From positions 7,066 to 71,065 of the forward strand of contig CAYTES010000001.1 in the NCBI GenBank assembly GCA_964436935.1: a DNA stretch of 64,000 nucleotides, given 5' to 3'. Positions 40,295 through 64,000 of the stretch are shown here, one piece after another. Below the pieces are notes generated by a model that searched no databases, was not told where the DNA came from, and saw only the letters and a program-made list of their open reading frames with translations. The translations under genes were made by a program, and so were the position numbers. This DNA comes from an uncultured Candidatus Peribacteria bacterium. Its GTDB lineage: Bacteria; Patescibacteriota; Gracilibacteria; UBA1369; UBA12473. Positions within the stretch are counted from its first letter, which is position 1; each line of letters starts with the position of its first letter.

Positions 40295-43200
40295 TTAGAA
40301 AATAGCTCGAATCAACTCAACTAAGCTGGCATACAAACCCTGTTTTTCAAAGGAAATTTCTTCCGAGGATTCAAACAGTTCATTGGTTTCTTTCCAGTCC
40401 TGAACCCGCTGAATGATGGTCGAGGTTTCCGCACGATTGAGGCCGTTATAAAGGTCGGCATTTCCCGTGTCTCCCTGTCCCTCAATAATTCCGGCGGCGT
40501 AGAGTGCCTCCGCAGCATGCCAATAGGCATCATCCGGAGCCACATCGGGGAAGTATCCTTCGAAAACAGTGGGAGGTTCCATGCCTTCCTTCTGTCCCAA
40601 TTCGAGCATCAATTGCATCATTTCCGCGCGATTCACCATTTGACTCAGATCGGAATAGGCAATGGAAAGATTCAATGCTTTGGCTTTATTTTCATACGGA
40701 GTCCACCACACCTCTCCTCCTTCTCCAGCGACTTCGTAATCAAAAGCGAACAACGCCATTTTCAAGACTTCGGCCCGTCTTGTGCCGTCACTGGGGCCAA
40801 AATTGTAGGTTCGATTGCCGTTTCCATCTTTGTATCCTCCCAAAATGCCTTCCTGGGCAGATTCGATCACATGACCGGCATACCAGTATTCTGCAGGAGA
40901 CGCATTGTAGGCATCATTAAAAATATACGGAACGTCATGAAACTCATACCCATACTCAAATTTAGACTGCTCCGCTTGCTCCAAAAGTTTTTGCAAATCA
41001 TCAATATAAGTTTGCAACTCAGCCTTAGAGGTTTCCTCATTGAGGGTATTGTTGATCGATTCCCATTGATCCGCGATTTCAGCGGCCAAATCCTCGTCAG
41101 GATAAGGCAGATTGGCAAACAATTCCTTAAACTCGGAAAGTGTTTCCAATTCTTGCGTGTTTTCATTCTCAATTTGTTCAAAATCCAGCGCCGTCACTTG
41201 TTCAAAAACAAGATTATTATTCTCCAACAACGCTTCACCTTGTGCTAAATTCTGAAAATTTTCCATCAGGCGATTGGTGAGTTTTTCCGTTAAATCGATC
41301 TCTAAAAACTTAACCAACTCTTCCATCACCGCCGCTTTAACCACGCGCACAATGTCTTCCAAAAGACTTTCCGTGATGCGGCTCACCAACTCATCCGCGA
41401 TATTTTGACCATATATTTGTTGCAAACGATTGCAGTTTCGGCCACAGTCTGGCCCGGATCCATAAAACTCATTTGAGTCATCAACCAAAATGGCGAACAT
41501 GGCCCAAACAGATTCCCATTCTCGATCCGTTAAAGTTAAACCGGATTGATGCCCGTTCACATAAAGAGAAATTTTTTCAATCTTCGGATCGATGAAGGAC
41601 GCCCATTTGTCCAATTGATTCCAAAAATGTTCCATAGATTTTTCAAGTTCATAAGGTTCACCATTAAAATCATCAAGCAAAGACTGCATGTCTTCTAACA
41701 TTTCTCTAGCATCAGGCATGACCTTAGAAATTTCGTTGAGAAAATTTTGATTCTTTTTATCCAATCGGCCATTTAAAACATCGACGGCAGCTTCAATAAC
41801 CTCAATTTCGTCTTGAAGGACAACCAGCTCTTCCTCGATCCATTGCGATTGAACGAGAGAGTTTTGCAATCGGTGAAGTGGCCCAAGGGCCTCCCACAAA
41901 AGACTGTTGTCTTGGCTATGAAAAGCAAAATCTTCACGGGTCCAGCCCAAATCGGCCCACATTTCATTCAATTCTTCGTCAAAATAGGAGCGTACCGTTT
42001 GACGTTCTTCGGAATCCGTCAGTTCATCAATCGTGCTAAAAGTAGGCATCTCCTCGATGCCGGATTCAAGCGCATCGCCAGAAATTAAAAACTCATCATA
42101 AAGTTGATAAAATTCATCCAGCCAATCTAAGGCATCCGTCAAAGCCCTCTCATCCTGGGATTCCAACTCAATATTCATGGCGTCCAAATGGACGAATAAC
42201 TTATTTTTCTCACGTTTCCATTCTAAAATATTGGTCACATTATCATAAAAGCTCAATTTTCCTTCGACGATATCCCGTTTCATTTGATAAACATCTGTTT
42301 TTCTCAAAATCAATACAGCGGCATCAAGATGATCCCACGTTAAATCTTTTTTATTTTTAAGATAAGTGAGCAGATCATTTTGAGCCTCAAGTTCGTTTGA
42401 AAACGCCTCCGACTCCTCTTGAACATAAAGCAAGAGCTCCTCCAAGGCAGCAATATCTTCCTCAAATTCACCCTTCACCTCATCGAGAAGTTCTGGCGAC
42501 AATCCTTCTTGCTCCAACCCCATCTCATCTTGTTCAACAAACTCGATCCGATCTTCAAAATCTTTAATTTTGCGTTCAATGCGTTTAGAGAATTGTCCAA
42601 AATATTTCAAATCCCGTTCCTTCCAGCGTAACCCTTCTTTCATCTCACTCAATTGTCGACCGGCCTCTTCGGGGTCGATAAGGTTACCATCATTTTGCTG
42701 ATCACAGGAGCCACTTTGAACGTTGCCTTTATCATCCTTACAGATTTCGCACCAGACTCCATCGCCATCCTCATCATTCCATTCACAGCGATTTTGATCG
42801 GGCTCTTCACAATACTGCGTGGTATAATTCCCTTTTTCATCGTAACAAGTTTTACACTCAAGACCCTGTCGGTCGACATAATAATCGCAGCGTCCTTGTT
42901 CAGAATCATCGCCATCATCCCAATCACCCTCTTGATCATCACAAGTATTTTTCAATACCGTCCCATCCGGCTTGGTGCAAGTTTCGCACCAAAAATAGCC
43001 ACCGGTATTTTCATACTCACAATGCGCATTGAGATCAAAATACTCCTCATTGGAATTATACGAATCATCATCAGCGCTATCTTGCCAACACGAACGATTG
43101 GTTACAGTTCCGTTGTTGTCATAACATTTCATGCACTGCAAACCATCCTGCCAAAAATAGTCACAAGAATTGGAACTCATGGATCCGCTTGAACTAGTGC

Positions 43201-45148
43201 TGGTCATCCAACACGAATCATTTTGTTTCACACCTTTATCGTCATAACACACGTTGCATTGCAAACCGTCGGCCTCATAACTTTCACATTGGGCAGAACC
43301 GTAGTAATTAGTTGTCGCGGTGCCATCGGCCGTGATGGTTGTCGTACCAACGATCGTACTGGTGTTGTTTGAAGAAATGGTACCACTGGTCGAACCTGTT
43401 CCCGAACCCGTATTGGTTGAAGTATTTGAAGTATTGTTGCTGGTGGTGGTTCCGCTGGTCGTGCTGGTTGACCCGGTTCCACTCGTAATTAAGGTGGTTC
43501 CCGTTGAAGTATTGTTGTTGGTGGTTCCCGTGTTGTTTGATCCCGTTGTGGCCGTACACGTATTTTTAATTTGCGTTCCATCTTGATAGGAACATTTTTG
43601 ACATTGAGTTCCATCGGAATTTTGCAAAAATTCACAATAAGCGTTTTTGGTGAAGTAATCATCGGGATATTCCGAGGCGTTGGAATAACACCATTCGGTA
43701 CGCAAATAACCCGAGGGGTCATAAAAGGAGGCGCACTCCATGTCGTTCGATTTTCTAAAATACACATTTTTGATGGTGTAACTGTAGCTGACGCTGCAAT
43801 AGGAACTTGATGTTTTTGAGCCCTGAGAACAGGTGGTGCACACCATGTCATTCACACTATTGTTCGTGACGCACTGTTGCGTTGAGGTTGTTGCTGAGGT
43901 TGAGCCCGTGGAGCCGGTAGTTCCACTGGAGGTTTCCGGTTCATACGCGTCACACATTTTCCCGATTCCATCCCCATCCGTATCTTTTTGATCGCTATTC
44001 GCGACTTCAATACAATTATCAGTATTATCCATCACTCCATCTTTATCCGTATCGGTGGTGGAAGATCCCGTAATAGTGACTAAAATGGAATTGCTATAGC
44101 CTAATCCACACTCCTCATTAGTACAGGTACGAATCATCCACGATCCGTTCATTTTAGGCGTTATCCCCGAAAGAGTTTGAATTCCGGTGGACGTTGTGGA
44201 CGTGAGTGTCGTGAGAGTAGTCACCGTACTTGCCGGAGAAGGACTGATAACCTGAATTTTAACATTGATCGGAACCCCGTTCGTGGGAGAGGCGCAGGTA
44301 TAAGTCAATTTAATACTTTCCGAAAAAGTATAGCTTGATTTGTCGGTAGCCAAATAAAATCCGGTGCAGGCCGGATAGGGAGTGGAATCACATTTGTCTC
44401 CTATTTTGTCACCATCGGTATCTTTTTGATCACTATTCGAGGCGTACATACAGTTATCAGTAGCATCCAAAATTCCATCGTAATCAAAATCCGCAGGGCA
44501 ATCCGTGGCACAAACCGTCGAATTTTCACCCGTTTGACAAATGTTATTTCCACAACTCGCCGTATTTTGGGTACTGACGCGATGCGCCGAAACCAAAGCC
44601 TGTTGCGCGGTCAAATCGCAAGCACCTTCATATTTAAATACAGAATAATCATGATCACTTCGACAATGATAGGTTGCCCCCAAATCGTCCACATACAGGC
44701 GCATATTGGTATTCACGTTACTTACCGCCGAAACATTGATATTGACCGACACATTTTTTCCCTCTTTACTCACTCCGGAAATGGTTAACGTTTGCGCACC
44801 AATCGCATCCGCGGCACCGATGGCAATGCCTCCGCTGCATGTATTGCGATTTTCCCATAATCCAGCGTCATTCAAATGACCGCATTCGGTATAGGGTGTT
44901 GGAAAATCTCCGGTCCAAATGGAAATTCCATAATTCAAATTACCCGGAGAATTGCCACCGGGATTGGTCGAAGAAACACTCGTGATTTTAGACAATTGCA
45001 AGAGTTGAACTCCTTCACTGCTGGCAATCACATCCGTTTTCAAAAAAGAACCATATGATCCACCCAATAAATCCCATCCGGTTAGGGTAGCCGCCACAAG
45101 TCCGGCAACCATTAAAAATTTAGGGTTCAATGAAGAAAAAAATTTCAC
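40295..45148 (-). CDS. giant secreted surface protein: TSP3-type Ca-binding repeats, four-Cys repeat array, coiled-coil region, C-terminal SLH domains
   Basis: The N-terminal hydrophobic signal is followed by these parts:
- DxDxDGxxDxxDNC...DQKDTDGDxIGxxCD twice (about 44387-44488 and 43949-44053)
- seven C-x9-11-C-x2-C-x11-12-C units
- T/S/G/N-rich linkers
- a long acidic helical region
- C-terminal FHDVP...GGYKDG...RAEVLKM and YFPDVA...GIIEG...RAETSTI (SLH-like, about 40403-40942). Confidence 0.85.
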   Translation of the reverse strand: MKFFSSLNPKFLMVAGLVAATLTGWDLLGGSYGSFLKTDVIASSEGVQLLQLSKITSVSSTNPGGNSPGNLNYGISIWTGDFPTPYTECGHLNDAGLWENRNTCSGGIAIGAADAIGAQTLTISGVSKEGKNVSVNINVSAVSNVNTNMRLYVDDLGATYHCRSDHDYSVFKYEGACDLTAQQALVSAHRVSTQNTASCGNNICQTGENSTVCATDCPADFDYDGILDATDNCMYASNSDQKDTDGDKIGDKCDSTPYPACTGFYLATDKSSYTFSESIKLTYTCASPTNGVPINVKIQVISPSPASTVTTLTTLTSTTSTGIQTLSGITPKMNGSWMIRTCTNEECGLGYSNSILVTITGSSTTDTDKDGVMDNTDNCIEVANSDQKDTDGDGIGKMCDAYEPETSSGTTGSTGSTSATTSTQQCVTNNSVNDMVCTTCSQGSKTSSSYCSVSYSYTIKNVYFRKSNDMECASFYDPSGYLRTEWCYSNASEYPDDYFTKNAYCEFLQNSDGTQCQKCSYQDGTQIKNTCTATTGSNNTGTTNNNTSTGTTLITSGTGSTSTTSGTTTSNNTSNTSTNTGSGTGSTSGTISSNNTSTIVGTTTITADGTATTNYYGSAQCESYEADGLQCNVCYDDKGVKQNDSCWMTSTSSSGSMSSNSCDYFWQDGLQCMKCYDNNGTVTNRSCWQDSADDDSYNSNEEYFDLNAHCEYENTGGYFWCETCTKPDGTVLKNTCDDQEGDWDDGDDSEQGRCDYYVDRQGLECKTCYDEKGNYTTQYCEEPDQNRCEWNDEDGDGVWCEICKDDKGNVQSGSCDQQNDGNLIDPEEAGRQLSEMKEGLRWKERDLKYFGQFSKRIERKIKDFEDRIEFVEQDEMGLEQEGLSPELLDEVKGEFEEDIAALEELLLYVQEESEAFSNELEAQNDLLTYLKNKKDLTWDHLDAAVLILRKTDVYQMKRDIVEGKLSFYDNVTNILEWKREKNKLFVHLDAMNIELESQDERALTDALDWLDEFYQLYDEFLISGDALESGIEEMPTFSTIDELTDSEERQTVRSYFDEELNEMWADLGWTREDFAFHSQDNSLLWEALGPLHRLQNSLVQSQWIEEELVVLQDEIEVIEAAVDVLNGRLDKKNQNFLNEISKVMPDAREMLEDMQSLLDDFNGEPYELEKSMEHFWNQLDKWASFIDPKIEKISLYVNGHQSGLTLTDREWESVWAMFAILVDDSNEFYGSGPDCGRNCNRLQQIYGQNIADELVSRITESLLEDIVRVVKAAVMEELVKFLEIDLTEKLTNRLMENFQNLAQGEALLENNNLVFEQVTALDFEQIENENTQELETLSEFKELFANLPYPDEDLAAEIADQWESINNTLNEETSKAELQTYIDDLQKLLEQAEQSKFEYGYEFHDVPYIFNDAYNASPAEYWYAGHVIESAQEGILGGYKDGNGNRTYNFGPSDGTRRAEVLKMALFAFDYEVAGEGGEVWWTPYENKAKALNLSIAYSDLSQMVNRAEMMQLMLELGQKEGMEPPTVFEGYFPDVAPDDAYWHAAEALYAAGIIEGQGDTGNADLYNGLNRAETSTIIQRVQDWKETNELFESSEEISFEKQGLYASLVELIRAIF

Positions 45149-50524: not shown

Positions 50525-53077
50525 ATGAAAAAATCGCTTCTTTCAACGGGCCTCATTCTTGGAATTCTGTTGACCCTCAATCCACTCACACCGTCGCCGG
50601 TACACGCCGAAACAACCTTTTCAGATCTTGAAGAAACCGATCCGAGTAAGGAAGCCGTCACTTATCTGAAAGAAGAAGGCATCGTGGATGGCTATTCCGA
50701 TGGAACCTTTCGCTCAACCCACAAAATCAATAGGGCGGAATTCATGAAAGTGGTGATAGGGACACTCACCGACAATCCCAGCGGATCATTCTGCTTTTCG
50801 GATGTGAACGAGGAATGGTTCGCGCCCTACATTTGTGAAGGAAAAACAAGAGGACTGGTGAACGGCTACGCCGATGGAAGCTTTCATCCGGAAGAAGAGA
50901 TTAATTTTGCCGAAGCCAGTAAAATTTTATCGAATGCCTTTGAATTGGAAGGAGAAACGCTGAATGACGAATGGTACGCCTCCTTCGTGAGTGCGCTCGA
51001 CGAAGAAAATGCGATTCCCACCTCCATCACCGATTTCGACAAATTCATCGCCCGTGGAGAAATGGCCGAAATGGTATGGCGAATTGAAGAAGGAACGGGA
51101 GAGGCGGTCGAGTCTCTCAAATATGAAGAGTTGGAAGGTACGATGGTGAACATCGAATCCTGCGAAGAACTCAAAGAACTCTTCTTGAGCAACCCCTACA
51201 ACTATTCCCCCATCACGATGTATGAAGAAATGGACGGAGATAGTGTTAGTGCCGAACCGGAAAGTGCTCCAACAGAGGATGCAAGCAGCAATGAAGTAAA
51301 ATCCTCGGACGACTACTCCACCACCAATATCCAAGTGACCGGGGTCGACGAATCCGACATCGTTAAAAACGATGGACAATATATTTACGCCATCCGCGAT
51401 CAAATGGTGGAAATTATCGAAGCGTACCCCCTGGAAAATTTAAGATCCGTGTCCAAAATTGAATTTGAAAATGAGGAAGAAATGTTTTGGCCTTCACAAC
51501 TCTATTTGGATGGAGACACTCTTGTTGTGATCGGCTCTCAATCCACCTACGAAACTTATGATTATGACTACGAGTATAAAGAAATATGGTTTCCCGAATA
51601 TCATCAAAATCGTACCGGAGTTTACATTTACGACATCAGCGACCGTAGCAATCCGACATTAAAACGAAACCTCACCCTAGACGGCAGTTATAGCAATTCG
51701 CGCAAAGTGGATGACACGCTCTATCTCATCTTAAACAAATACGACTTCCCCTATTATGGATACGATCCTGAAACGCTGGAAGTAGAGGAGGTATTGCCAC
51801 GCTACTACGATTCATTGAATGGAGAAGAAAAAGTGTTGGCCGACTGCAACGACATTCGATATATGCCACGAGAACGCACCCTCAATTACATCATTGCCAG
51901 TGCCATTCCAATCGACTCAGACGCCACGATCGATTCCGAAGTATTGATCGGAAACAGTGAAAACCTTTATTCCAGCCAAGAAAATCTATACATCGCCAGC
52001 ACCAATTATGAAAGTTCCGAGGACTATTATATGGACTGGGGAAACGCAAAAACCTGGCTGTACCGTTTTGGCCTGACTCCAGGAAAAATCACTTATGAAC
52101 GACGAGCAAAAGTGCCGGGCACTATCCTCAATCAATTCAGCATGGATGAACATGAGAATTATTTTCGCATTGCCACCACGCAACATGGAAGTTGGAATTG
52201 GATGTCGGACATCCAAACGGAATCCAGCAATAATCTTTATGTCCTCAATGAAAACATGGAAACCGTGGGGCAGATTGAAAACATTGCCCCCGGAGAACAG
52301 CTTTACTCCACTCGCTTCATGGGAGATAGAGGCTACTTGGTGACCTTTGAACAGATTGACCCTTTCTTTGTCGTGGATCTTTCGCAACCCACGGCGCCCA
52401 AAATCGTGGGCGAACTCAAAATCCCGGGGTATAGCGATTACCTCCATCCCTATGACGAAAATCATATTTTAGGATTTGGGAAAGACACCACGGATGCGGA
52501 AACAGAGAACCTTTTGGAGGAAGAAGCGGAATCCATGAACTGGTCATGGTATCAAGGGATGAAAGTGGGACTGTTCGACGTGACAGATCCTAGCAATCCC
52601 AAACAGATATTCAGTCTAGGCATCGGAGATCGCGGCACGGAAAGTGAACTGCTATATAACCACAAGGCCCTGCTCTTCAATGCCTCCAAAAATCTACTGG
52701 CCTTCCCCATTTCGGTAGCGGAGGTTGAAGAAAAATATGCCGATGATCCCATGGCATATGGCGAGACCATTTTCCAAGGTGCCTATGTTTATACGATCGA
52801 CCTTGAAAATGGTTTCACGCCTCGAGGCACCATCACGCATTATGATGAAAGTGCCGAAGGAAGCTATTGGGACTGGTATGACTATCTCAAAGAGATCAGC
52901 CGCATCCTCTACATCGATGAACATCTATACACGGTCTCCGAAGGAGCGATCAAAGCCAGTGACATTTTAACCACGGAGGAACAAGGAGAGTTGATCCTAG
53001 AAACCTCGTCAACCGATATCTACGACTATCCGGAAGGCGAAGTGGAAAGTGAAAGTTCGCAGGAAACGGAGTTGTAA
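50525..53077 (+). CDS. secreted SLH-domain protein with C-terminal beta-propeller domain (COG4880-like)
   Basis: Signal peptide. Two or three SLH-like units (FSDLEE..GIVDGYSDGTFRS..INRAEFMKV; FSDVNEEWFAPYI..GYADGSFHP). TTNIQVTGVDESDIVKNDGQYIYAI is typical of the Beta_propel family. Confidence 0.8.
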   Translation: MKKSLLSTGLILGILLTLNPLTPSPVHAETTFSDLEETDPSKEAVTYLKEEGIVDGYSDGTFRSTHKINRAEFMKVVIGTLTDNPSGSFCFSDVNEEWFAPYICEGKTRGLVNGYADGSFHPEEEINFAEASKILSNAFELEGETLNDEWYASFVSALDEENAIPTSITDFDKFIARGEMAEMVWRIEEGTGEAVESLKYEELEGTMVNIESCEELKELFLSNPYNYSPITMYEEMDGDSVSAEPESAPTEDASSNEVKSSDDYSTTNIQVTGVDESDIVKNDGQYIYAIRDQMVEIIEAYPLENLRSVSKIEFENEEEMFWPSQLYLDGDTLVVIGSQSTYETYDYDYEYKEIWFPEYHQNRTGVYIYDISDRSNPTLKRNLTLDGSYSNSRKVDDTLYLILNKYDFPYYGYDPETLEVEEVLPRYYDSLNGEEKVLADCNDIRYMPRERTLNYIIASAIPIDSDATIDSEVLIGNSENLYSSQENLYIASTNYESSEDYYMDWGNAKTWLYRFGLTPGKITYERRAKVPGTILNQFSMDEHENYFRIATTQHGSWNWMSDIQTESSNNLYVLNENMETVGQIENIAPGEQLYSTRFMGDRGYLVTFEQIDPFFVVDLSQPTAPKIVGELKIPGYSDYLHPYDENHILGFGKDTTDAETENLLEEEAESMNWSWYQGMKVGLFDVTDPSNPKQIFSLGIGDRGTESELLYNHKALLFNASKNLLAFPISVAEVEEKYADDPMAYGETIFQGAYVYTIDLENGFTPRGTITHYDESAEGSYWDWYDYLKEISRILYIDEHLYTVSEGAIKASDILTTEEQGELILETSSTDIYDYPEGEVESESSQETEL

Positions 53078-53243
53078 AGTCCGCCACCGAATATCCGTGC
53101 ACAATAAGCCTAGAAACAATTCATCACCTAGGCTCAAACGAATCATAGCTGCAGAAGAAGCGCCTATTTCGAAAACTTGAAGAAAACCTCGCTTTGATTT
53201 AGGATAAGATCTCTTGCTCTCGCTCTTCAACGACACCGCCTCC

Positions 53244-55613
53244 ATGTCTTATAGGAAACATTTTCGTGCACTCCCCTTGAACCGCATCACCCTCATGATG
53301 GGGATTGGATTTTTTATGGGATTTATTATCTTTTCTCGACTTTTCTACCTCCAAATTGTGAAAGGAAACTATTATCAAGAAATCGCTTTTGAAAAAAATC
53401 AGGGCTATACGGAAATTCCCGCACGGCGGGGAGAAATTCTCATTCAAGACAGTCATTCCGGAGAACCCTATGCCTTAGCCACAAACACCACACTCAATCT
53501 TCTATATGCCGACCCTTCTCTCATTGAAGATCCCGGCTATGTAGGAGGAAAATTGGCACCATTGCTCTTTGACTTGGAAAGTGAAAAAGAAAGAGACAAA
53601 GAACGGTATGAAAATCTGATGTCCGACTTAAGAAAAGCACAAAGAAAAGAGATGGAGGAACCGGCCACTCCCATGGAAGAAACCACCGGCACAGAAACTC
53701 CAACAACAACAAATCCCGAAAGCTCCCCCGCTCCCTCTCTAAATCTTCCCCCAAGCGACCCCACCGCCCCTCCTTCCTATGGTGACTTTCGCCTTCATAC
53801 GGACGACGAACTTTTCGCACTCTACCAAAGAGATTTAATTGATACATTAAGTCAAAAAACCCGTTCCGTGATCCTCCTAACGGAAGACCTCGATGAAGGG
53901 CTGGCCAAAACCATTCGGGACAAAGCGATCACCGGCGTGGAAGTCACCGAAAACGGAAAACTATACACCTATCCTTCCCAAATCAGCGATAAAGACAGAA
54001 CGTCAAAAACACTCGCTGACATTTTAGATATGGAATGGGAAAGACTCCAACAAATTTTAATCGGCCGCAATCGGTATGCCGTATTGAAACGAAAACTTGC
54101 ACCCGAAATTTCAGACCAAATCGAAAAACTGATCCATGAGGAACCGAAAGCTTTTTTTGGAATACGAATGAAGGAAGAATATTTTCGATTCTATCCCGAA
54201 GGCTCTTTGGCGGCTCAAGTACTGGGATACGTCAATCATAAAAATAACGGACAATACGGAATTGAAGGAACTTTCGATGACCAACTGGAGGGAAAAAGTG
54301 GTTACTTCAGTTCCCAAATTGATGCCAGCGGAAAACAAATCACTGTAGGAGACAGTGAAATCGTGGATGCGGTAAACGGGGCAAACATTACGTTAACCTT
54401 AGATCGATCCATTCAAGCGGAAGCGGAAAAATTAATCGCAAAAGGCGTTGAAAATTTTCAGGCCGATAGCGGTCAAATCATTGTCCAAGAAACAAAAACC
54501 GGCCGGATACTGGCCATGGCCCACTATCCAACGTTTGATCCCAATACCTATGGCGATATATTTAAACTCGAAGAAGTCGAACTCAGTCAAAACGACCGAG
54601 AAAATTTATACCGGGTGGGCGAAGGAGAAAATGAAAAGTTGTACCTTTACATCCGCAAAGATCCCGATGTTCGCATTGAAATCTTTTATGACAAAGACAA
54701 GGATAAATATTATAAATATGCGAATAACGTCGGACCGGAAGTCTATCAACTCAAAGCGGTCACGCTTCCTTATGAACCCGGATCGGTCTTCAAGGCCGTT
54801 GCCATGGCCTCCGGAGTAGATGCCGATGAGGTAACCCCGTACACAACATTTTTCAGCGACGGGCCGGTCCAGGTGGATGAGTATGAAATTCACACGTTCA
54901 ATGACGAATATTACGGCACCTCGACTATGACGGAAGTCTTGATTCATTCCGACAACACGGGAATGGTATTCGTGGCACGAAAATTGGGACGAGCCCTTTT
55001 TTATGACTATCTGAAAAACTTCGGATTCGGCAAAAAAACCAATATTGAATTCGAAGGAGAAAATGCAGGACGCGTAGAGTATTACGATTACTGGGCGGAA
55101 TCGGAACTCGTAACCAAAGCGTTCGGACAAGGTATTACGGTCACTCCCATCCAGCTCATCACCGCCATTTCAGCCGTCGGAAACGGCGGGCTGCTCATGC
55201 AACCTTATATTGTGGACTCCATGGACGAAGCCAACGGTAAAAACATTGAATTTGAACCACATGTGGTACAACGGGTTCTCAAAGAAGAAACCTCCGATCA
55301 AGTCACCTCAATGATGATTGCGGTCGTAGAAAACGGAGCGCCCAATACCGTAATGGAGGACCACTTCATTGCGGGAAAAAGCGGAACCGCTCAAACCTAT
55401 AAATATGGAAAAGCACTAAAAGGAAAAGGGACCACCATCGCCTCATTCACGGGCTTTGCTCCGGTCAAAGATCCCCAATTCACCATCTTGGTAAAGTTAG
55501 ATCGCCCCAAAACCTCCGAATGGGCCGAAGGAACCTCAGGTAAAATCTTTAAAGAAATGGCACAGTTCTTATTCCAGTACTACAACATTCCACCCGATAA
55601 AAACCTAAAATGA
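53244..55613 (+). CDS. penicillin-binding protein 2 / FtsI-type transpeptidase
   Basis: N-terminal TM anchor; SVFK, SDN and KSGT motifs. A P/T/E-rich insert (EEPATPMEETTGTETPTTTNPESSPAPS) lies in the N-terminal module. Start set to ATG 53244. Confidence 0.9.
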   Translation: MSYRKHFRALPLNRITLMMGIGFFMGFIIFSRLFYLQIVKGNYYQEIAFEKNQGYTEIPARRGEILIQDSHSGEPYALATNTTLNLLYADPSLIEDPGYVGGKLAPLLFDLESEKERDKERYENLMSDLRKAQRKEMEEPATPMEETTGTETPTTTNPESSPAPSLNLPPSDPTAPPSYGDFRLHTDDELFALYQRDLIDTLSQKTRSVILLTEDLDEGLAKTIRDKAITGVEVTENGKLYTYPSQISDKDRTSKTLADILDMEWERLQQILIGRNRYAVLKRKLAPEISDQIEKLIHEEPKAFFGIRMKEEYFRFYPEGSLAAQVLGYVNHKNNGQYGIEGTFDDQLEGKSGYFSSQIDASGKQITVGDSEIVDAVNGANITLTLDRSIQAEAEKLIAKGVENFQADSGQIIVQETKTGRILAMAHYPTFDPNTYGDIFKLEEVELSQNDRENLYRVGEGENEKLYLYIRKDPDVRIEIFYDKDKDKYYKYANNVGPEVYQLKAVTLPYEPGSVFKAVAMASGVDADEVTPYTTFFSDGPVQVDEYEIHTFNDEYYGTSTMTEVLIHSDNTGMVFVARKLGRALFYDYLKNFGFGKKTNIEFEGENAGRVEYYDYWAESELVTKAFGQGITVTPIQLITAISAVGNGGLLMQPYIVDSMDEANGKNIEFEPHVVQRVLKEETSDQVTSMMIAVVENGAPNTVMEDHFIAGKSGTAQTYKYGKALKGKGTTIASFTGFAPVKDPQFTILVKLDRPKTSEWAEGTSGKIFKEMAQFLFQYYNIPPDKNLK

Positions 55614-59592: not shown

Positions 59593-60162
59593 ATGATCCC
59601 CGAACAAGAGCAAGTGGCGATTGATGCCGCTAAAGAGAATAAATGCGCCTTCATAACCTTATATGATCAAAATTTCCATTGTATCTATGGATTTCTTCTG
59701 GCCCGGGGATTAAACCGCGAAACCGCAGAAGATTTAACGTCTGAAACCTTCTCACTCGCCCTCAAAAACATCGATCGCTATGTGTACACGGGGAAACCCT
59801 TCAAAGCTTGGCTCTATCGAATAGCCATCAATGAAATGAACAAACATTTCAAACGTCAACAACGGGACAAAAAAATCCTTATTATGGAAAAAAATCACTC
59901 CGAAATGACAACCGAAGCGGCAGATCAAGAATTGAAGCGAAAAGAAGAAGAGTTCGTACACGGCAAAAATAGGGCCGTACTACAAGACGCCTTAAAACAT
60001 CTCAAACCTAAAGAACAAGATCTCATTTCATTACGCTATTTCGAAGATCTTTCTTATAAAGAGATCGGCGACATCATGGGCATGCGCCTAAGCCATGTAG
60101 GAGTCAAACTCAACCGAACCCTAAAGCGTCTTTCCAAGCTCTGCACTTTTTACCCTTTATGA
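59593..60162 (+). CDS. ECF-type RNA polymerase sigma factor
   Basis: Region 2 (ETAEDLTSETFSLAL...FKAWLYRIAINEMNKHFKR) and region 4 HTH (LISLRYFEDLSYKEIGDIMGMRLSHVGVKLNRTLKRL). Confidence 0.9.
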   Translation: MIPEQEQVAIDAAKENKCAFITLYDQNFHCIYGFLLARGLNRETAEDLTSETFSLALKNIDRYVYTGKPFKAWLYRIAINEMNKHFKRQQRDKKILIMEKNHSEMTTEAADQELKRKEEEFVHGKNRAVLQDALKHLKPKEQDLISLRYFEDLSYKEIGDIMGMRLSHVGVKLNRTLKRLSKLCTFYPL

Positions 60163-60222: not shown

Positions 60223-63200
60223 ATGAATCCTCTGGAATTCTATCTCAAACAACTCGCTGCCATGGTCAAACGTAAAGCCAGACCACAATTCAAAGACGAA
60301 CTACGTCAAAAATTAATGCATCAAGCACGAGAATTGAATGAAAAACCAGCTTCTCGATGGAAAGAAGCCTGGAAAAACTTCCGAAACAGCATTTTCCAAG
60401 GACATCGTTGGGTTTCCGTGACCGCCGCAATGCTCATTTTGGTCATTGGAACACTGGCCATTAATCCCGGTGGATTCAAAAACAACCCCGTCCAGCTGGT
60501 CAATCTGGCTGAGGCCCAGGATTTTTATACCCTGACTCCCTCCCTTTCGGACACCAACGGAATTTCGGAAGAAACCACCTTCAAACTGGCCAGCAAAGAA
60601 AATCTCGACGTGGAAGAAGTGAAGCAAAATCTTTCCATCTCTCCCGAAATCGCCTTCGAGATTGACAAAACAGCAGGCAATACACTGGAAATTAAACCAC
60701 TGGGAACACTCGAACCCGGAACCGTCTACCAATTCAAATTGGAAGGCCAAAATTTAAAAAATAATCCTTTCCCCAAAGAATTCAGCTGGTCTTATGAGGT
60801 GTCCGAAGAATTCAAAATTACCGGAACCCTCCCAAAGAATCATGAAAATTATATTTATATAAACACCGGAATCGAAATCTCCTTCAATAGAAATGGCGTA
60901 GAGATTGAAAATTTCAAAAATCATTTTTCCATCACTCCGGCCGTGGAAGGAACGTTCGACGTCAAAGGAAAAACAGGGATTTTTATACCTAAAACGGAAG
61001 ACGGATTGAAGCCCTCAACCATTTATAAGGTCGCTATAAAATCGGGACTCGGAATAAAAAATAGCGAAAAGATATTACAAGAAAATTTTAACTTTGAATT
61101 CAAAACCCAAGAGGAGGGAAATGTCGAGGGAGAAGAAATTAGTTTTGATAAAGAAATTTATGATTTCAATCCAAACCTCAATCCAAACTTAGGAGTAAAC
61201 TATTATCGGATCGACACCTACAATGACGAGCAAAACGTCGAAGTCTCAATAAATCTGTACCGCTACCCTACGGGCGAAGCTTATCTTGAAGCATTAAGGG
61301 GTTATAGGGAAATAAGTCCGCAATGGGCCTACTACACAAACCGTATTTATGGCGATATTCCGACCGACGGGCTGGAAAAAGTACTGGAAATCCCGAAAAT
61401 AAACGCCGCCCTAAATCCCGCAAACTATGGACGTTGGATGTCGCTGCCTCAATCCTTAAACGAAGGATATTATCTCATCGAAATGCAAAAAGGGAACCTG
61501 AAAGATCAATCGTTTGTACAGGTATCCCCCCTTGCAAGCTATATTGCTTTCAGCAAAGAAAAATCCATCATTTGGGTCAACAACACAGCAACCAAAGGAC
61601 CGGTTGAAAATGCGACGGTGGAAATTCTCGACCATGATCTCGAAGCAAAAACAAATAATGAAGGAGTTGCTTCATTTGAAGAACTAAATTCCAAAATTAA
61701 ATTGCCCGAAGAAGACCAAACGGCACTTTATCTCAAAATCACTTCGGGTGAAAAAAACGTCTATTACGAAACGGTACTCAATCCAACAACTCCCAACGAA
61801 ACCAATGACACATGGCAGGTCCTTCAAACCGAACGAGAAGTCTATCGTCCGGATGATACGGTATTCTATTGGGGATTCTTACAGGGACGGGAGAAGCCGC
61901 TTCAAAAAAACGCGAAAATGGTGATCACTCCAAGTTATCTGACCTATGCAAAAGAAATAGCAGGTGAACAAGAAAAAAACACCATCCTCCATGAAGAAAA
62001 TATCGTGCTCAAAGATGGCGAAGCATTCGAAGGAAAGGTAAACCTGAAAAAATTCAATCCGGGATATTACATGATGTACATCATTCAAGACGATAATATT
62101 GTAAGTCGTACCGGATTTTCCGTAAGCAATTATATTAAACCGGCTTACCAAATTGTGGTGGACCCCGAAAAAACTGTACTTTTGGAAGGAGAATCCACAC
62201 CGGTAAAAATCACGGCACGTTTTTTTGAAGGAACCCCCGTGGCTCATACGAACTTACGATACGAAATGTGGGGAGAAACCCCTCAAGTGCTCACCACGGA
62301 CGAAAAAGGAGAAATCATTACCACCATGACCGCCAAAGTCGACTGTCCGGACATCAATTATTGTAGCTGGGAAAACTATCAGGGAATTTACGTGACTCCG
62401 GTACAAGAAGAATTGGCCGACATTCAAGGACAAACCACCGTACGAATCATAAGGAGCAAAGCGCATGCCAATCCTATTGAACTTTCGCACAAAGCCCTTT
62501 CGATGACGGTTCATACCGTGGATTTGGAAAAAATCAACCACAACAGTTCCAACTGGAAAGAAAGTAGTGACGTGGAAGCGGGCCCCTCGGCAAATACCCC
62601 CATAGAAGTGAGTATCACCCGTGTGGATTGGATTCAAATCGAAACCGGAGAATACTACGACAACATCGACAAGCAAATTCATAAAACGTATCAAAGCGTT
62701 CAAGAAGAAATACCCATGCCCGCCATTCAAGGAAAAACAGATGCAGAAGGGAAATTCAACTACAATCTGACGCTTGATCCGGCACACGACTATCGAATGG
62801 TGATAAAAATCACGGATGCGGAAGGTGCTTTTTATACTGAAAATAGTTGGTTGAGTAAAAAAACCCCTGATGGAAATACTGAATTTTTAATGCTCGAAAC
62901 CAATAAGGGCGGGACAACTGAGCGAGAAGTATTCAAACAAGGAGAGGAAGTTCAAATCTCAATGATCGGAGTAAGTGAAACCACGTCGAATCATTATCTT
63001 TTCTTACAAACACAGGATGGAATTTTGAACGAAAAAATAAGCACCGAGCCTCGATATGAATTCAAATTAAAAAAAGAACATATTCCGAATCTATGGATAA
63101 GCGGGGTCCAGTTTGATGGGACCTACTATCAAAGTGCCGGAGAAAAAAATATTGAATATGACGCGGAAGAGGAACGCTTGGACATCGAAATGCATAGCGA

Positions 63201-64000
63201 CAAAAAAGAGTATGAACCTGGAGAAAAAGTAACCCTGGACTTCAAAGTACAGGAAAAAAAGAGTGGAAAAGGCGTGCCGGCTCAAGTGAACTTGTCACTT
63301 GTCGACGAAGCCTACTACGAACTCTATCCGGAAAGCTTCAGGGATCCACTCGGATTTCTATATAACGATGTTTCCGGGAATGTAGAATTCAAATACGCCT
63401 CTCAAGTGAACCCGATGAACACTCAAGAAACGGGGGGCATGGGCGGCTGTTTCATAGCCGGGACTTTAATAAAGATGGCCGACGGAAGTACAAAAAAAAT
63501 TGAAAACATTCAAAAAGGAGATATCATCTTGACGCGAAAAGACGAATGGAGCAATAAAAAAATAGACGCCGAAGTGACGCAAACTTTTGAAAAAAAGGTT
63601 GGAGAATATCTGTGGATCAATGAAAATCTTGGAATCACGGAGGAACATATCCTCTTTGTGAATGGGCAATGGCAGTTAGCCGGTGAAATTAAAATCGGAG
63701 ATACTCTCATCAATGAATCCGGCAAGTCGGTAACAATCACATCGATTGAACAAAAAAGAAAATCCATAATGGTCTATAACTTCACGGTGGCCGACCATCA
63801 CACCTATTTCGCCAACGGAATTTATGTCCACAACGATAAAGGGGGAACACGGGAAGATTTCAGGGACACCGCAGTCTTCTCAGTGGTGTCCACCGATGCA
63901 AACGGATGGGGAACCTTCACCTTCACCTTACCGGACAATATCACTTCCTGGCAGGTTAGTGCCGGGGCGGTACGAGGAGGAGAAAAAGTTCAAGGCGGAT
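60223..64000 (+). CDS. membrane-anchored alpha-2-macroglobulin-like protein (3' end beyond window); NOT in supplied ORF track
   Basis: My own translation from ATG 60223 gives 1259 codons with no stop to the window edge. There is one TM helix (WVSVTAAMLILVIGTLAI, about 60409-60462). MG-domain-type motifs are present (EVYRPDDTVFYWGF, KEYEPGEKVTLDFKV, AQVNLSLVDEAYYEL), along with the A2M-domain signature FRDTAVFSVVSTDANGWGTFTFTLPDNITSWQV. All listed minus-strand ORFs in this span are antisense to it. Confidence 0.85.
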   Translation, partial: MNPLEFYLKQLAAMVKRKARPQFKDELRQKLMHQARELNEKPASRWKEAWKNFRNSIFQGHRWVSVTAAMLILVIGTLAINPGGFKNNPVQLVNLAEAQDFYTLTPSLSDTNGISEETTFKLASKENLDVEEVKQNLSISPEIAFEIDKTAGNTLEIKPLGTLEPGTVYQFKLEGQNLKNNPFPKEFSWSYEVSEEFKITGTLPKNHENYIYINTGIEISFNRNGVEIENFKNHFSITPAVEGTFDVKGKTGIFIPKTEDGLKPSTIYKVAIKSGLGIKNSEKILQENFNFEFKTQEEGNVEGEEISFDKEIYDFNPNLNPNLGVNYYRIDTYNDEQNVEVSINLYRYPTGEAYLEALRGYREISPQWAYYTNRIYGDIPTDGLEKVLEIPKINAALNPANYGRWMSLPQSLNEGYYLIEMQKGNLKDQSFVQVSPLASYIAFSKEKSIIWVNNTATKGPVENATVEILDHDLEAKTNNEGVASFEELNSKIKLPEEDQTALYLKITSGEKNVYYETVLNPTTPNETNDTWQVLQTEREVYRPDDTVFYWGFLQGREKPLQKNAKMVITPSYLTYAKEIAGEQEKNTILHEENIVLKDGEAFEGKVNLKKFNPGYYMMYIIQDDNIVSRTGFSVSNYIKPAYQIVVDPEKTVLLEGESTPVKITARFFEGTPVAHTNLRYEMWGETPQVLTTDEKGEIITTMTAKVDCPDINYCSWENYQGIYVTPVQEELADIQGQTTVRIIRSKAHANPIELSHKALSMTVHTVDLEKINHNSSNWKESSDVEAGPSANTPIEVSITRVDWIQIETGEYYDNIDKQIHKTYQSVQEEIPMPAIQGKTDAEGKFNYNLTLDPAHDYRMVIKITDAEGAFYTENSWLSKKTPDGNTEFLMLETNKGGTTEREVFKQGEEVQISMIGVSETTSNHYLFLQTQDGILNEKISTEPRYEFKLKKEHIPNLWISGVQFDGTYYQSAGEKNIEYDAEEERLDIEMHSDKKEYEPGEKVTLDFKVQEKKSGKGVPAQVNLSLVDEAYYELYPESFRDPLGFLYNDVSGNVEFKYASQVNPMNTQETGGMGGCFIAGTLIKMADGSTKKIENIQKGDIILTRKDEWSNKKIDAEVTQTFEKKVGEYLWINENLGITEEHILFVNGQWQLAGEIKIGDTLINESGKSVTITSIEQKRKSIMVYNFTVADHHTYFANGIYVHNDKGGTREDFRDTAVFSVVSTDANGWGTFTFTLPDNITSWQVSAGAVRGGEKVQGG
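63448..63834 (+). other. Hint / bacterial intein-like (BIL) domain embedded in the alpha-2-macroglobulin-like CDS
   Basis: 129 codons: Cys1 block A CFIAGTLIKMADGSTKKIENIQKGDIIL, block B GITEEHILF (TxxH), blocks F/G VYNFTVADHHTYFANGIYVHN. The next residue is Asp (DKGG). There is no endonuclease insert. Confidence 0.8.

Follow-up and report, generated by a model that had tools for sequence, protein, structure and literature searches.

What does a Hint domain of intein-like type do in the bait of a macroglobulin, and what becomes of the host protein that carries it? This question is raised by a 64,000-nucleotide stretch of DNA (the window) from an uncultured Candidatus Peribacteria bacterium (contig CAYTES010000001.1, positions 7,066 to 71,065 of the forward strand), near the end of which an open reading frame (ORF) for an alpha-2-macroglobulin (A2M)-like protein starts at ATG 60223 and continues without a stop to the window end (60223..63999, + strand; 1259 residues visible). 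Within this ORF, a 129-aa Hint domain of the type-A bacterial intein-like (BIL)/PT-HINT class is delimited by Pfam, NCBIfam, sequence and structure matches (63448..63834, + strand). The original prediction for this DNA had placed an intein-like domain at the bait position of an A2M homologue and proposed that it cleaves there. We describe what is observed of this domain, namely its identity, intact catalytic residues, exact insertion site, conservation in a family, empty sites in relatives and flexible tethers, and weigh what it may do in its host. The locus appears to represent a widespread and previously undescribed occurrence of a putatively self-processing Hint domain in the macroglobulin bait.

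Identity and position of the Hint domain

The Hint-coding segment comprises 387 nt, or 129 codons, in the same frame as the host ORF. It opens with TGT for Cys1 (63448-63450) and closes with CAC AAC for His-Asn (63829-63834), followed by GAT for Asp (63835-63837), so that the Asp read at +1 in the original prediction is confirmed. Between these ends lie T64-x-x-H67 in block B (GITEEH) and the V-Y-N of block F (VYNF...HTY), followed by the terminal His128-Asn129. Class-1 inteins usually have Asp in block F, where the present domain has Asn. The Pfam family PT-HINT (PF07591) matched residues 1082-1205 of the whole ORF with E=1e-19 (71.6 bits; cut-off 27.7) and the isolated domain with E=1.7e-21 (77.3 bits), and weaker Pfam matches were obtained for Vint, Hom_end_hint, Hint_2 and Intein_splicing. 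The NCBIfam model intein_Cterm (TIGR01443; cut-off 15.6) gave the ORF 18.3 bits and the isolated domain 22.2 bits. The top PDB sequence match was the BIL of Clostridium thermocellum (CthBIL, 2LWY; E=1.3e-9). When a 300-residue model was compared with Foldseek, the Tetrahymena BIL2 (6Y75; E=6e-12, TM 0.79) ranked first and CthBIL second (E=5.6e-11, TM 0.84, rmsd 1.8 Å), followed by the DnaB, gp41-1 and RecA mini-inteins and then by hedgehog. Taken together, the PT-HINT match and the BILs at the top of both comparisons bear out the prediction of a Hint/BIL-type domain with all its catalytic blocks. The domain is thus a member of the Hint superfamily, with matches much too strong to have arisen by chance.

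Because Cys1, the block-B T-x-x-H, block F and the terminal His-Asn are combined with a +1 residue that is Asp rather than the Cys, Ser or Thr of class-1 inteins, the domain would be classed as a type-A BIL by the testable criteria in the literature (PMC4031507). It shares with CthBIL the mini-Hint size of ~130-140 aa, Cys1, TxxH, VYNF...HTY, His-Asn, the lack of a +1 nucleophile and the location in secreted or surface proteins. The domain is present in a single copy, no second Hint being found within the 64-kb window. Its GC content (0.393) is unremarkable within the range of the ORF (0.418 ± 0.03), and a recent acquisition of the domain, or its recent arrival in the window, was therefore rejected. 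An 85-aa ORF on the opposite strand (63510-63767, - strand), wholly inside the Hint-coding segment, most likely arises by chance in AT-rich coding DNA.

The host is a membrane-anchored protein of the A2M superfamily. Its visible part consists of a cytoplasmic N-terminal segment of ~64 aa, one transmembrane helix, Big_5/macroglobulin (MG) domains, the bait-region domain (BRD), the Hint domain and the start of the A2M domain. Pfam detected A2M_BRD (PF07703) at ORF residues 899-1034 (62917..63324, + strand; E=6.5e-11), ending in LSLVDEAYYEL, and the start of the MG7-type A2M domain (PF00207) at residues 1216-1251 (63868..63975, + strand; 22.4 bits, cut-off 21), which contains LPDNITSWQV, aligns to residues 718-759 of the A2M chain 7S62 and continues past the window end. 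An AlphaFold2 (AF2) model of residues 85-1259, based on a 43-sequence alignment, had a mean pLDDT of 82.7, and its top PDB matches in Foldseek were ECAM (5A42; E=3.7e-32) and SaA2M (4U48; E=2.2e-31). The A2M-family flanks proposed in the original prediction are thus supported by profiles above their cut-offs as well as by the predicted structure. No exact copy of a 46-mer taken from the end of the window turned up in either of the contig collections scanned (genome and metagenome). In full-length orthologues (P0001-P0004; 1768-1813 aa, 35-43% identical), which are without CxEQ, the Hint domain is followed by the A2M MG7 domain, a thioester-domain (TED)-like region and bMG10; the nearest match of the window protein is only 43% identical. 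Only three Cys residues are found in the 1259 residues of the ORF, at positions 708, 714 and 1076, the last being Cys1 of the Hint domain and the other two making up a C-x5-C pair conserved in the family consensus.

The insertion site lies in the Gly-run that closes the bait, five residues ahead of the Arg-x-x-Phe of the segment known as alpha'NT. After the BRD, the family alignment shows a linker of conserved length with the motif Y-x-L-Y-x-E-x-F-R-D-P-L-x-x-L-Y (63325..63411, + strand), which leads to the variable bait end with its Gly-run (PMNTQETGGMGG; 63412..63447, + strand). This stretch forms the N-terminal tether, with an AF2 pLDDT below 50, and its Gly-Gly at -2/-1 is predicted to be the acyl donor of a thioester. 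On the other side, Asp(+1)-Lys(+2)-Gly-Gly-Thr-Arg(+6)-Glu-Asp-Phe(+9)-Arg makes up the C-terminal junction and alpha'NT in the window sequence (63835..63864, + strand), and the two junctions together read ...GGMGG/C...VHN/D-K-G-G-T-R-E-D-F-R-D-T, where slashes mark the ends of the Hint domain. Set against the human sequence ETVRKYFPET, Arg falls at +6 and Phe at +9. R(+6) and F(+9) were matched by eye to R732 and F735 of human A2M (PMC9352918).

In the A2M family, the cleavable moiety (the bait, or the anaphylatoxin (ANA) domain in C3, C4 and C5) precedes alpha'NT, and in native proteins the conserved R732 and F735 of that segment pass through a channel bounded by MG2, MG3 and the linker (PMC9352918). 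Judged from the aligned sequences, the Hint domain appears to hold the position of the ANA domain in C3, C4 and C5. For the thioester-bearing relative P0005, phmmer aligned the Hint flanks to SaA2M up to residue 916 and from residue 984, and the residue after the Hint to ~721-723 of human A2M; the mapping of the bait onto SaA2M and ECAM is based on these phmmer alignments together with the alpha'NT motif. The predicted bait position, between the A2M_BRD and A2M domains and just ahead of alpha'NT, is therefore upheld. The only low-confidence AF2 stretches near the Hint are 12 residues before Cys1 and 6 after Asn, and in the model the Hint is a confidently predicted folded domain on two flexible tethers.

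Family-wide conservation and empty sites

A query profile reaching from the end of the BRD through the Hint into the beginning of the A2M domain was searched against 1.84 billion representatives clustered at 50% identity. As a result, 812 matches were obtained at E<=1e-30. Among the best 150 of them (weakest E, 3e-80), at least 142 are A2M-like and carry a single Hint in this position, and junction residues were counted in these. The Hint is exactly 129 aa long in 131 of these 142, and Cys1 and Phe2 are present in all of them and the C-terminal VHN in 141. The flanks are likewise conserved, with Gly at -1 in 137 (96%) and at -2 in 129, Lys at +2 in 134 (94%) and Gly at +3 in 117. At +1, Asp (74), Gln (31) and Glu (19) prevail over Ser (5), Ala (5), Asn (3), Lys (2), Thr (2) and Ile (1), that is, the residue is non-nucleophilic in 95% and a nucleophile in only 7 of the 142. 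Across 149 Hint representatives that are mutually <=50% identical, C1, T64, H67, H128 and N129 are invariant. R-x-x-[FYW] occurs 4-12 residues past the Hint in 141 of the 149, the R and F of alpha'NT are invariant in the family alignment A1, and VDEA and Cys1 are separated by 40-49 residues in 121 of the 126 representatives for which this spacing was determined. The mean pairwise identity is 45% for the Hint vs 32% for 255 residues of host flank. Members that carry a name belong to Peregrinibacteria, Gracilibacteria, Nomurabacteria or the 'Patescibacteria group', and the Hint in the macroglobulin is a family trait across the Candidate Phyla Radiation (CPR) and not a one-off. In the databases, members are labelled 'polymorphic toxin-type HINT domain-containing' (e.g. 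P0001 and P0165) or 'Ig-like domain-containing'.

Type-A BILs were reportedly placed in hypervariable regions of non-conserved proteins by Amitai and colleagues in 2003. Unlike these classical BILs, which are often found in tandem, the present domain occupies one fixed site in a conserved multidomain host, has empty-site homologues as true inteins do, and is bordered by conserved flanks (GG/ and /xKGG). The bait is a variable loop of a surface protein, yet the insertion falls at exactly the same residue across at least 142 representatives and three host clades. Tandem-Hint proteins that are not A2Ms (P0053, P0059, P0032 and P0035) of the same lineage were also found, with the minimal linkers HN/KG/C, HN/KGG/C and HN/KGGG/C and with inserts in some copies. 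In P0021 and P0133 the Hint is a variant one, which closes with ...HTY/NVVWG and is without His-Asn.

Bacterial A2Ms have been divided into type I, with CxEQ and a PBP1c partner, and type II (MagD), with a six-gene mag operon and no CxEQ (PMC5764988). Rough neighbour-joining trees, with saturated distances and one NaN warning, were built of the host (Hint removed) and of the Hint (129 aa). The host tree spreads the Hint-bearing proteins over at least three clades, with Hint-less proteins in between. Clade 1 is made up of type-I A2Ms of the classical kind, which have CTEQ and are encoded next to PBP1c, as exemplified by P0005, in which the classical type-I gene pair, with PBP1c upstream, also carries a Hint. 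Clade 2 has 34 members of ~1650-1780 aa, mostly CxEQ-bearing, and clade 3 is sigma-linked and CxEQ-less and includes the orthologues of the window. The host of the window resembles ECAM, SaA2M and MagD in its MG array, BRD and A2M domains, membrane anchor and Gly-rich bait end. Unlike types I and II, its clade has neither CxEQ nor a mag operon but carries an N-terminal cytoplasmic extension with a transmembrane helix and an extracytoplasmic function (ECF) sigma gene upstream. The window stops before the TED region, and the four closest orthologues, which have an ECF sigma gene upstream, are without CxEQ. Instead of a mag operon, an ECF sigma gene precedes the host, and its orthologues are followed by PrsW, an S41 peptidase or Memo. 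The window host therefore appears to fit neither described bacterial A2M type, and no characterised bacterial A2M with a Hint in the bait was found. Among full-length Hint-bearing proteins, CxEQ is kept in 36 of 133 and missing from 97, and all 36 CxEQ-bearing hosts have GG at -2/-1 and Lys at +2. The idea that the Hint replaces a missing thioester was thus rejected as a general rule. Identity of the Hint is 47% within and 43% between clades, while that of the host is 33-46% within and 19-25% between, suggesting strong constraint on a domain that was either gained or exchanged repeatedly at this one site, or inserted long ago and then precisely lost more than once.

Using a profile of full-length family members, close Hint-less relatives were found (P0168-P0178; 598-1483 bits), which are ~130-170 aa shorter; two of the Hint-less relatives carry names, Uhrbacteria and Clostridiales. 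At their empty sites, P0169 reads AEKGG-EGGAERRDF and P0170 AEKGG-DGGGVRADF, with EGGG-EGGSERKDF and similar sequences in others, where Hint-bearing sites read (A/G)(E/G)KGG/Hint/DKGGxREDF. After in-silico excision of the Hint, the linker from VDEA to the alpha'NT Arg is 47-52 aa long (50 in the window), and it is 48-50 aa in the nearest Hint-less relatives. The hallmark combination of inteins, a fixed insertion site and intein-less homologues with a contiguous extein (P0169, P0170 and P0173), is thus found here. Class-1 mini-inteins such as Ssp DnaB and gp41-1 share the fold, blocks A, B, F and G, the fixed site, the intein-less homologues and the absence of a homing endonuclease, but differ from the present domain in having Cys, Ser or Thr instead of Asp, Gln or Glu at +1, and in residing in enzymes of replication or repair, where the present host is an extracytoplasmic protein that evolves fast.

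A Gly-run 8-15 residues ahead of the Arg is common in Hint-less bacterial A2Ms at large, indicating that the GG/D or GG/E context is host-derived. The alternative that the GG/ and /D flanks arrived together with a Hint cassette was largely rejected, as KGG-D/E-GG is also found in Hint-less A2Ms. Lys within 6 residues of the alpha'NT Arg is present in 110 of 128 Hint-bearing vs 12 of 34 Hint-less proteins, and P0170, which is Hint-less and aligns without gaps, has Gly at the position of Lys+2; Lys+2 is the one flank feature that tracks with the Hint. Moreover, the Hint-less P0176 and the Hint-bearing P0125 lie in identical surroundings, each preceded by an ECF sigma gene and followed by Memo, suggesting that the host system works with and without the Hint.

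Proposed self-excision and its alternatives

A reading that we favour tentatively, at a little less than even odds, is that the Hint excises itself and an amine rejoins the two host halves, restoring a normal bait. The +1 Asp means that canonical transesterification cannot join these halves. The original view that BILs cleave rather than splice is nevertheless too strong, since type-A BILs that end in His-Asn can join their flanks even where +1 is not a nucleophile, the freed alpha-amine being the proposed attacking group (PMC4031507), and Tetrahymena BIL2 forms an isopeptide between a Lys epsilon-amine and a C-terminus (PMC8616854). In the proposed sequence of events, the ectodomain would be exported and the Hint would fold on its two flexible tethers. 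Cys1076 would then undergo an N-S acyl shift onto Gly1075 to give a Gly thioester. Cyclisation of Asn1204 would cut the Asn-Asp bond and release the 14.7-kDa Hint, and the Gly thioester would be attacked either by the alpha-amine of Asp+1, as in the C. thermocellum BIL, or by the epsilon-amine of Lys+2, as in BIL2. The product would be a covalently continuous bait of ~50 residues, as in Hint-less relatives, giving the spring-loaded native A2M state, while unligated molecules would become two-chain and pre-triggered.

What favours this reading is that homologues with an empty site exist, that their linkers are equally long, that the gene context is shared with and without the Hint, that Gly lies at -1 and that continuity is needed. 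The trigger of A2Ms is a backbone discontinuity upstream of alpha'NT, where native A2M needs covalent continuity (PMC9352918), and re-ligation would therefore keep the host functional. Gly-1 provides the least hindered thioester, supporting re-ligation chemistry, and excision fits better than a single cut because both junctions are conserved. A furin cut N-terminal to the folded ANA domain does not lead to triggering (PMC9352918). A folded Hint retained on alpha'NT would be expected to behave as ANA does and to prevent retraction in response to proteases. Given the empty sites, ordinary self-removal is the leading reading. The new trap mechanism put forward in the original prediction is unproven, as the sequence and linker length of Hint-less relatives are those of a precise excision and favour self-removal at least equally.

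Several points weigh against self-excision with re-ligation. The processing chemistry, the identity of the attacking amine and the outcome in vivo are what we infer, and the C-terminal domains of the window gene are known from the 35-43% identical orthologues alone. In vitro, cleavage products of type-A BILs outweigh splicing (PMC4031507). Selection for efficient splicing should make Ser, Thr or Cys common at +1, a position at which they occur in 7 of 142 representatives. In addition, the Hint is without a homing endonuclease, occupies the same site in at least three host clades and is more uniform between them (43%) than the hosts (19-25%). Such uniformity across clades is not predicted for a purely parasitic passenger and hints at a selected function.

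Such a function might lie in the cleavage itself, a somewhat unlikely reading in which the Hint is a built-in and protease-independent cleavable moiety in the place of ANA, plugs alpha'NT while attached, and through Asn cyclisation frees alpha'NT and fires the A2M. On the same reading, the cut might instead mature the protein into a two-chain, C3-like form, and in sigma-linked members the event might be linked to release of the ECF sigma factor. The likeness to ANA of C3, C4 and C5 is that of a folded domain at the bait position just N-terminal of alpha'NT, where a C-side cut frees alpha'NT and triggers; the folds are unrelated, however, and an external convertase removes ANA whereas the Hint could remove itself. 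A purpose in cleavage agrees with the C-junction lying 5 residues ahead of the alpha'NT Arg, with triggering by a discontinuity upstream of alpha'NT but not by an N-side cut of ANA (PMC9352918), with the non-nucleophilic +1 residue in 95% and with the observation that type-A BILs mainly cleave in vitro (PMC4031507). The stronger conservation of the Hint than of its host, its presence in at least three host clades, and the conserved neighbours, an ECF sigma gene ahead of the host gene and proteases of the PrsW and CtpB-like kinds after it, point the same way. Hint-less relatives, including P0176 with the same sigma and Memo neighbours, nevertheless have an ordinary continuous bait of equal length, suggesting that the host does not need the Hint, and constitutive self-cutting would leave the trap permanently sprung. 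A regulatory cue is not evident in the sequence, and the invariance of Cys1 would not be required if the C-terminal cut alone mattered. A broader version, which we regard as unlikely, makes the Hint a functional part of the trap, at once an autocatalytic ANA equivalent and a BUBL-like conjugation device. Attack by Lys+2 would then give an isopeptide-stapled bait with a free Asp N-terminus, attack by a target Lys would give covalent capture, and Asn cyclisation would set or fire the macroglobulin spring without a convertase, with a relay to the ECF sigma factor through the N-terminal cytoplasmic segment in sigma-linked members.

Covalent capture or conjugation, an idea raised in the original prediction, in which the Gly~Cys1 thioester is resolved by an external amine (for instance from the Lys of an attacking protease, from peptidoglycan or a lipid, or from a partner protein), is quite unlikely, and so is its outcome, a membrane-anchored N-terminal chain covalently joined to its target as BIL2 does with ubiquitin-like domains. 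The Tetrahymena thermophila BUBL BIL2 (6Y75/6TMM) has the same Gly-Gly/Cys donor, and its product is a Lys isopeptide, where the present family has a near-invariant Lys+2. It differs in being eukaryotic, with ubiquitin-like flanks, and in conjugating to other proteins, whereas the present domain is flanked by the A2M bait and alpha'NT and an isopeptide is hypothetical. Capture is favoured by the resemblance of GG/C to the ubiquitin-like ...GG/C of BIL2, the top structural match, which conjugates to Lys of other proteins (PMC8616854), and by the 97 of 133 full-length hosts without the CxEQ thioester. On the other hand, the 36 hosts that keep CxEQ all have GG and Lys+2, and the Hint is therefore no substitute for the TED thioester. 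The invariant His-Asn would also be unneeded for N-terminal conjugation alone, and the GG run is host-derived, being present in Hint-less A2Ms as well.

That the Hint is a non-processing passenger, tolerated or used as a folded spacer in a flexible bait, is very unlikely. The bait is a permissive disordered loop in the AF2 model, and C3, C4 and C5 tolerate a folded domain at this place (PMC9352918). Five catalytic residues are nonetheless invariant in 149 diverged representatives with ~45% identity in the rest of the domain, and Cys1 is kept in a protein nearly devoid of Cys. Both junction chemistries are under selection, which also speaks against inertness. It is extremely unlikely that the domain is a pretoxin HINT of a polymorphic toxin releasing a C-terminal toxin, as the NCBI name implies. 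PT-HINT is the top Pfam family and NCBI gives the toxin-type name to P0001 and P0165, but the region downstream in orthologues consists of MG7, the TED-like region and bMG10 and not of a toxin module, the structural matches are ECAM and SaA2M, and an immunity-like gene was not noted downstream in the loci examined.

Gene neighbourhood and wider significance

Directly upstream of the host ORF lies an ECF-type sigma-70 gene (59593..60162, + strand) with Sigma70_r2 and r4 matches. In six loci a sigma gene directly precedes the A2M-like gene, from an overlap to a gap of 60 nt, and one of these A2M-like genes encodes a Hint-less relative; sigma genes in related loci lie at L001 7438-8004, L002 7417-7977, L003 653-1228, L007 5466-6035 and L009 3448-4008. 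The gene context makes the host look like an anti-sigma factor with a macroglobulin sensor. An anti-sigma domain was not found by Pfam in the N-terminal 126 aa of the host ORF, and no description of an anti-sigma factor linked to a macroglobulin was found in the full-text literature. In CxEQ-less Hint-bearing proteins, the first transmembrane-like segment starts at about residue 58 (median), and those examined share the cytoplasmic motif L..L..M(R/L)KKR..F...LR..L ahead of it.

PrsW is a site-1 protease for an anti-sigma factor in Bacillus. Genes for a PrsW-family protease and a CtpB-like S41/PDZ peptidase follow the sigma-A2M pair in three loci (L001 15593-17517, L002 16618-18568 and L003 6531-8492); the corresponding part of the present locus falls past the window end. 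In three loci, a Memo-family gene (PF01875) comes directly after the A2M-like gene (L007 11829-12731, L008 8851-9726 and L009 9151-10029), overlapping it in two of the three and pairing with proteins with the Hint (P0125) and without it (P0168 and P0176). Reverse-transcriptase fragments and a bAvd gene resembling a diversity-generating retroelement (L002 69-1370), ~7 kb upstream of the P0003 locus, are probably unrelated. Elsewhere in the window, a class-B penicillin-binding protein gene (transpeptidase without a transglycosylase domain; 53214-55613) is not adjacent to the host ORF. Two S-layer-homology proteins, one of 1617 aa with a thrombospondin type-3 repeat (40295-45148, - strand) and one of 850 aa with a Beta_propel domain (50525-53077, + strand), suggest that the source organism has an envelope with an S-layer.

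Full-text searches for a Hint, BIL or intein in an A2M or bait region, or for a macroglobulin in the CPR, turned up nothing relevant, in keeping with the original statement that no described example was known, although subscription journals were thinly covered and absence is unproven. For intein and BIL biology, these proteins form a large natural family that blurs both classes, with the fixed site and empty alleles of inteins, the +1 Asp, Gln or Glu of BILs, and conserved Gly-Gly and Lys flanks. The family would offer a natural setting in which to study protein ligation that is mediated by amines and free of a nucleophile, and perhaps isopeptide splicing in bacteria. For A2M and complement biology, a self-cleaving domain at the place of the bait or ANA, one turn upstream of the alpha'NT plug, could change how the macroglobulin trap is armed or fired. 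For the CPR, it belongs to an abundant family of surface proteins, often accompanied by an ECF sigma factor, that may help these bacteria to survive the proteases of hosts or competitors.

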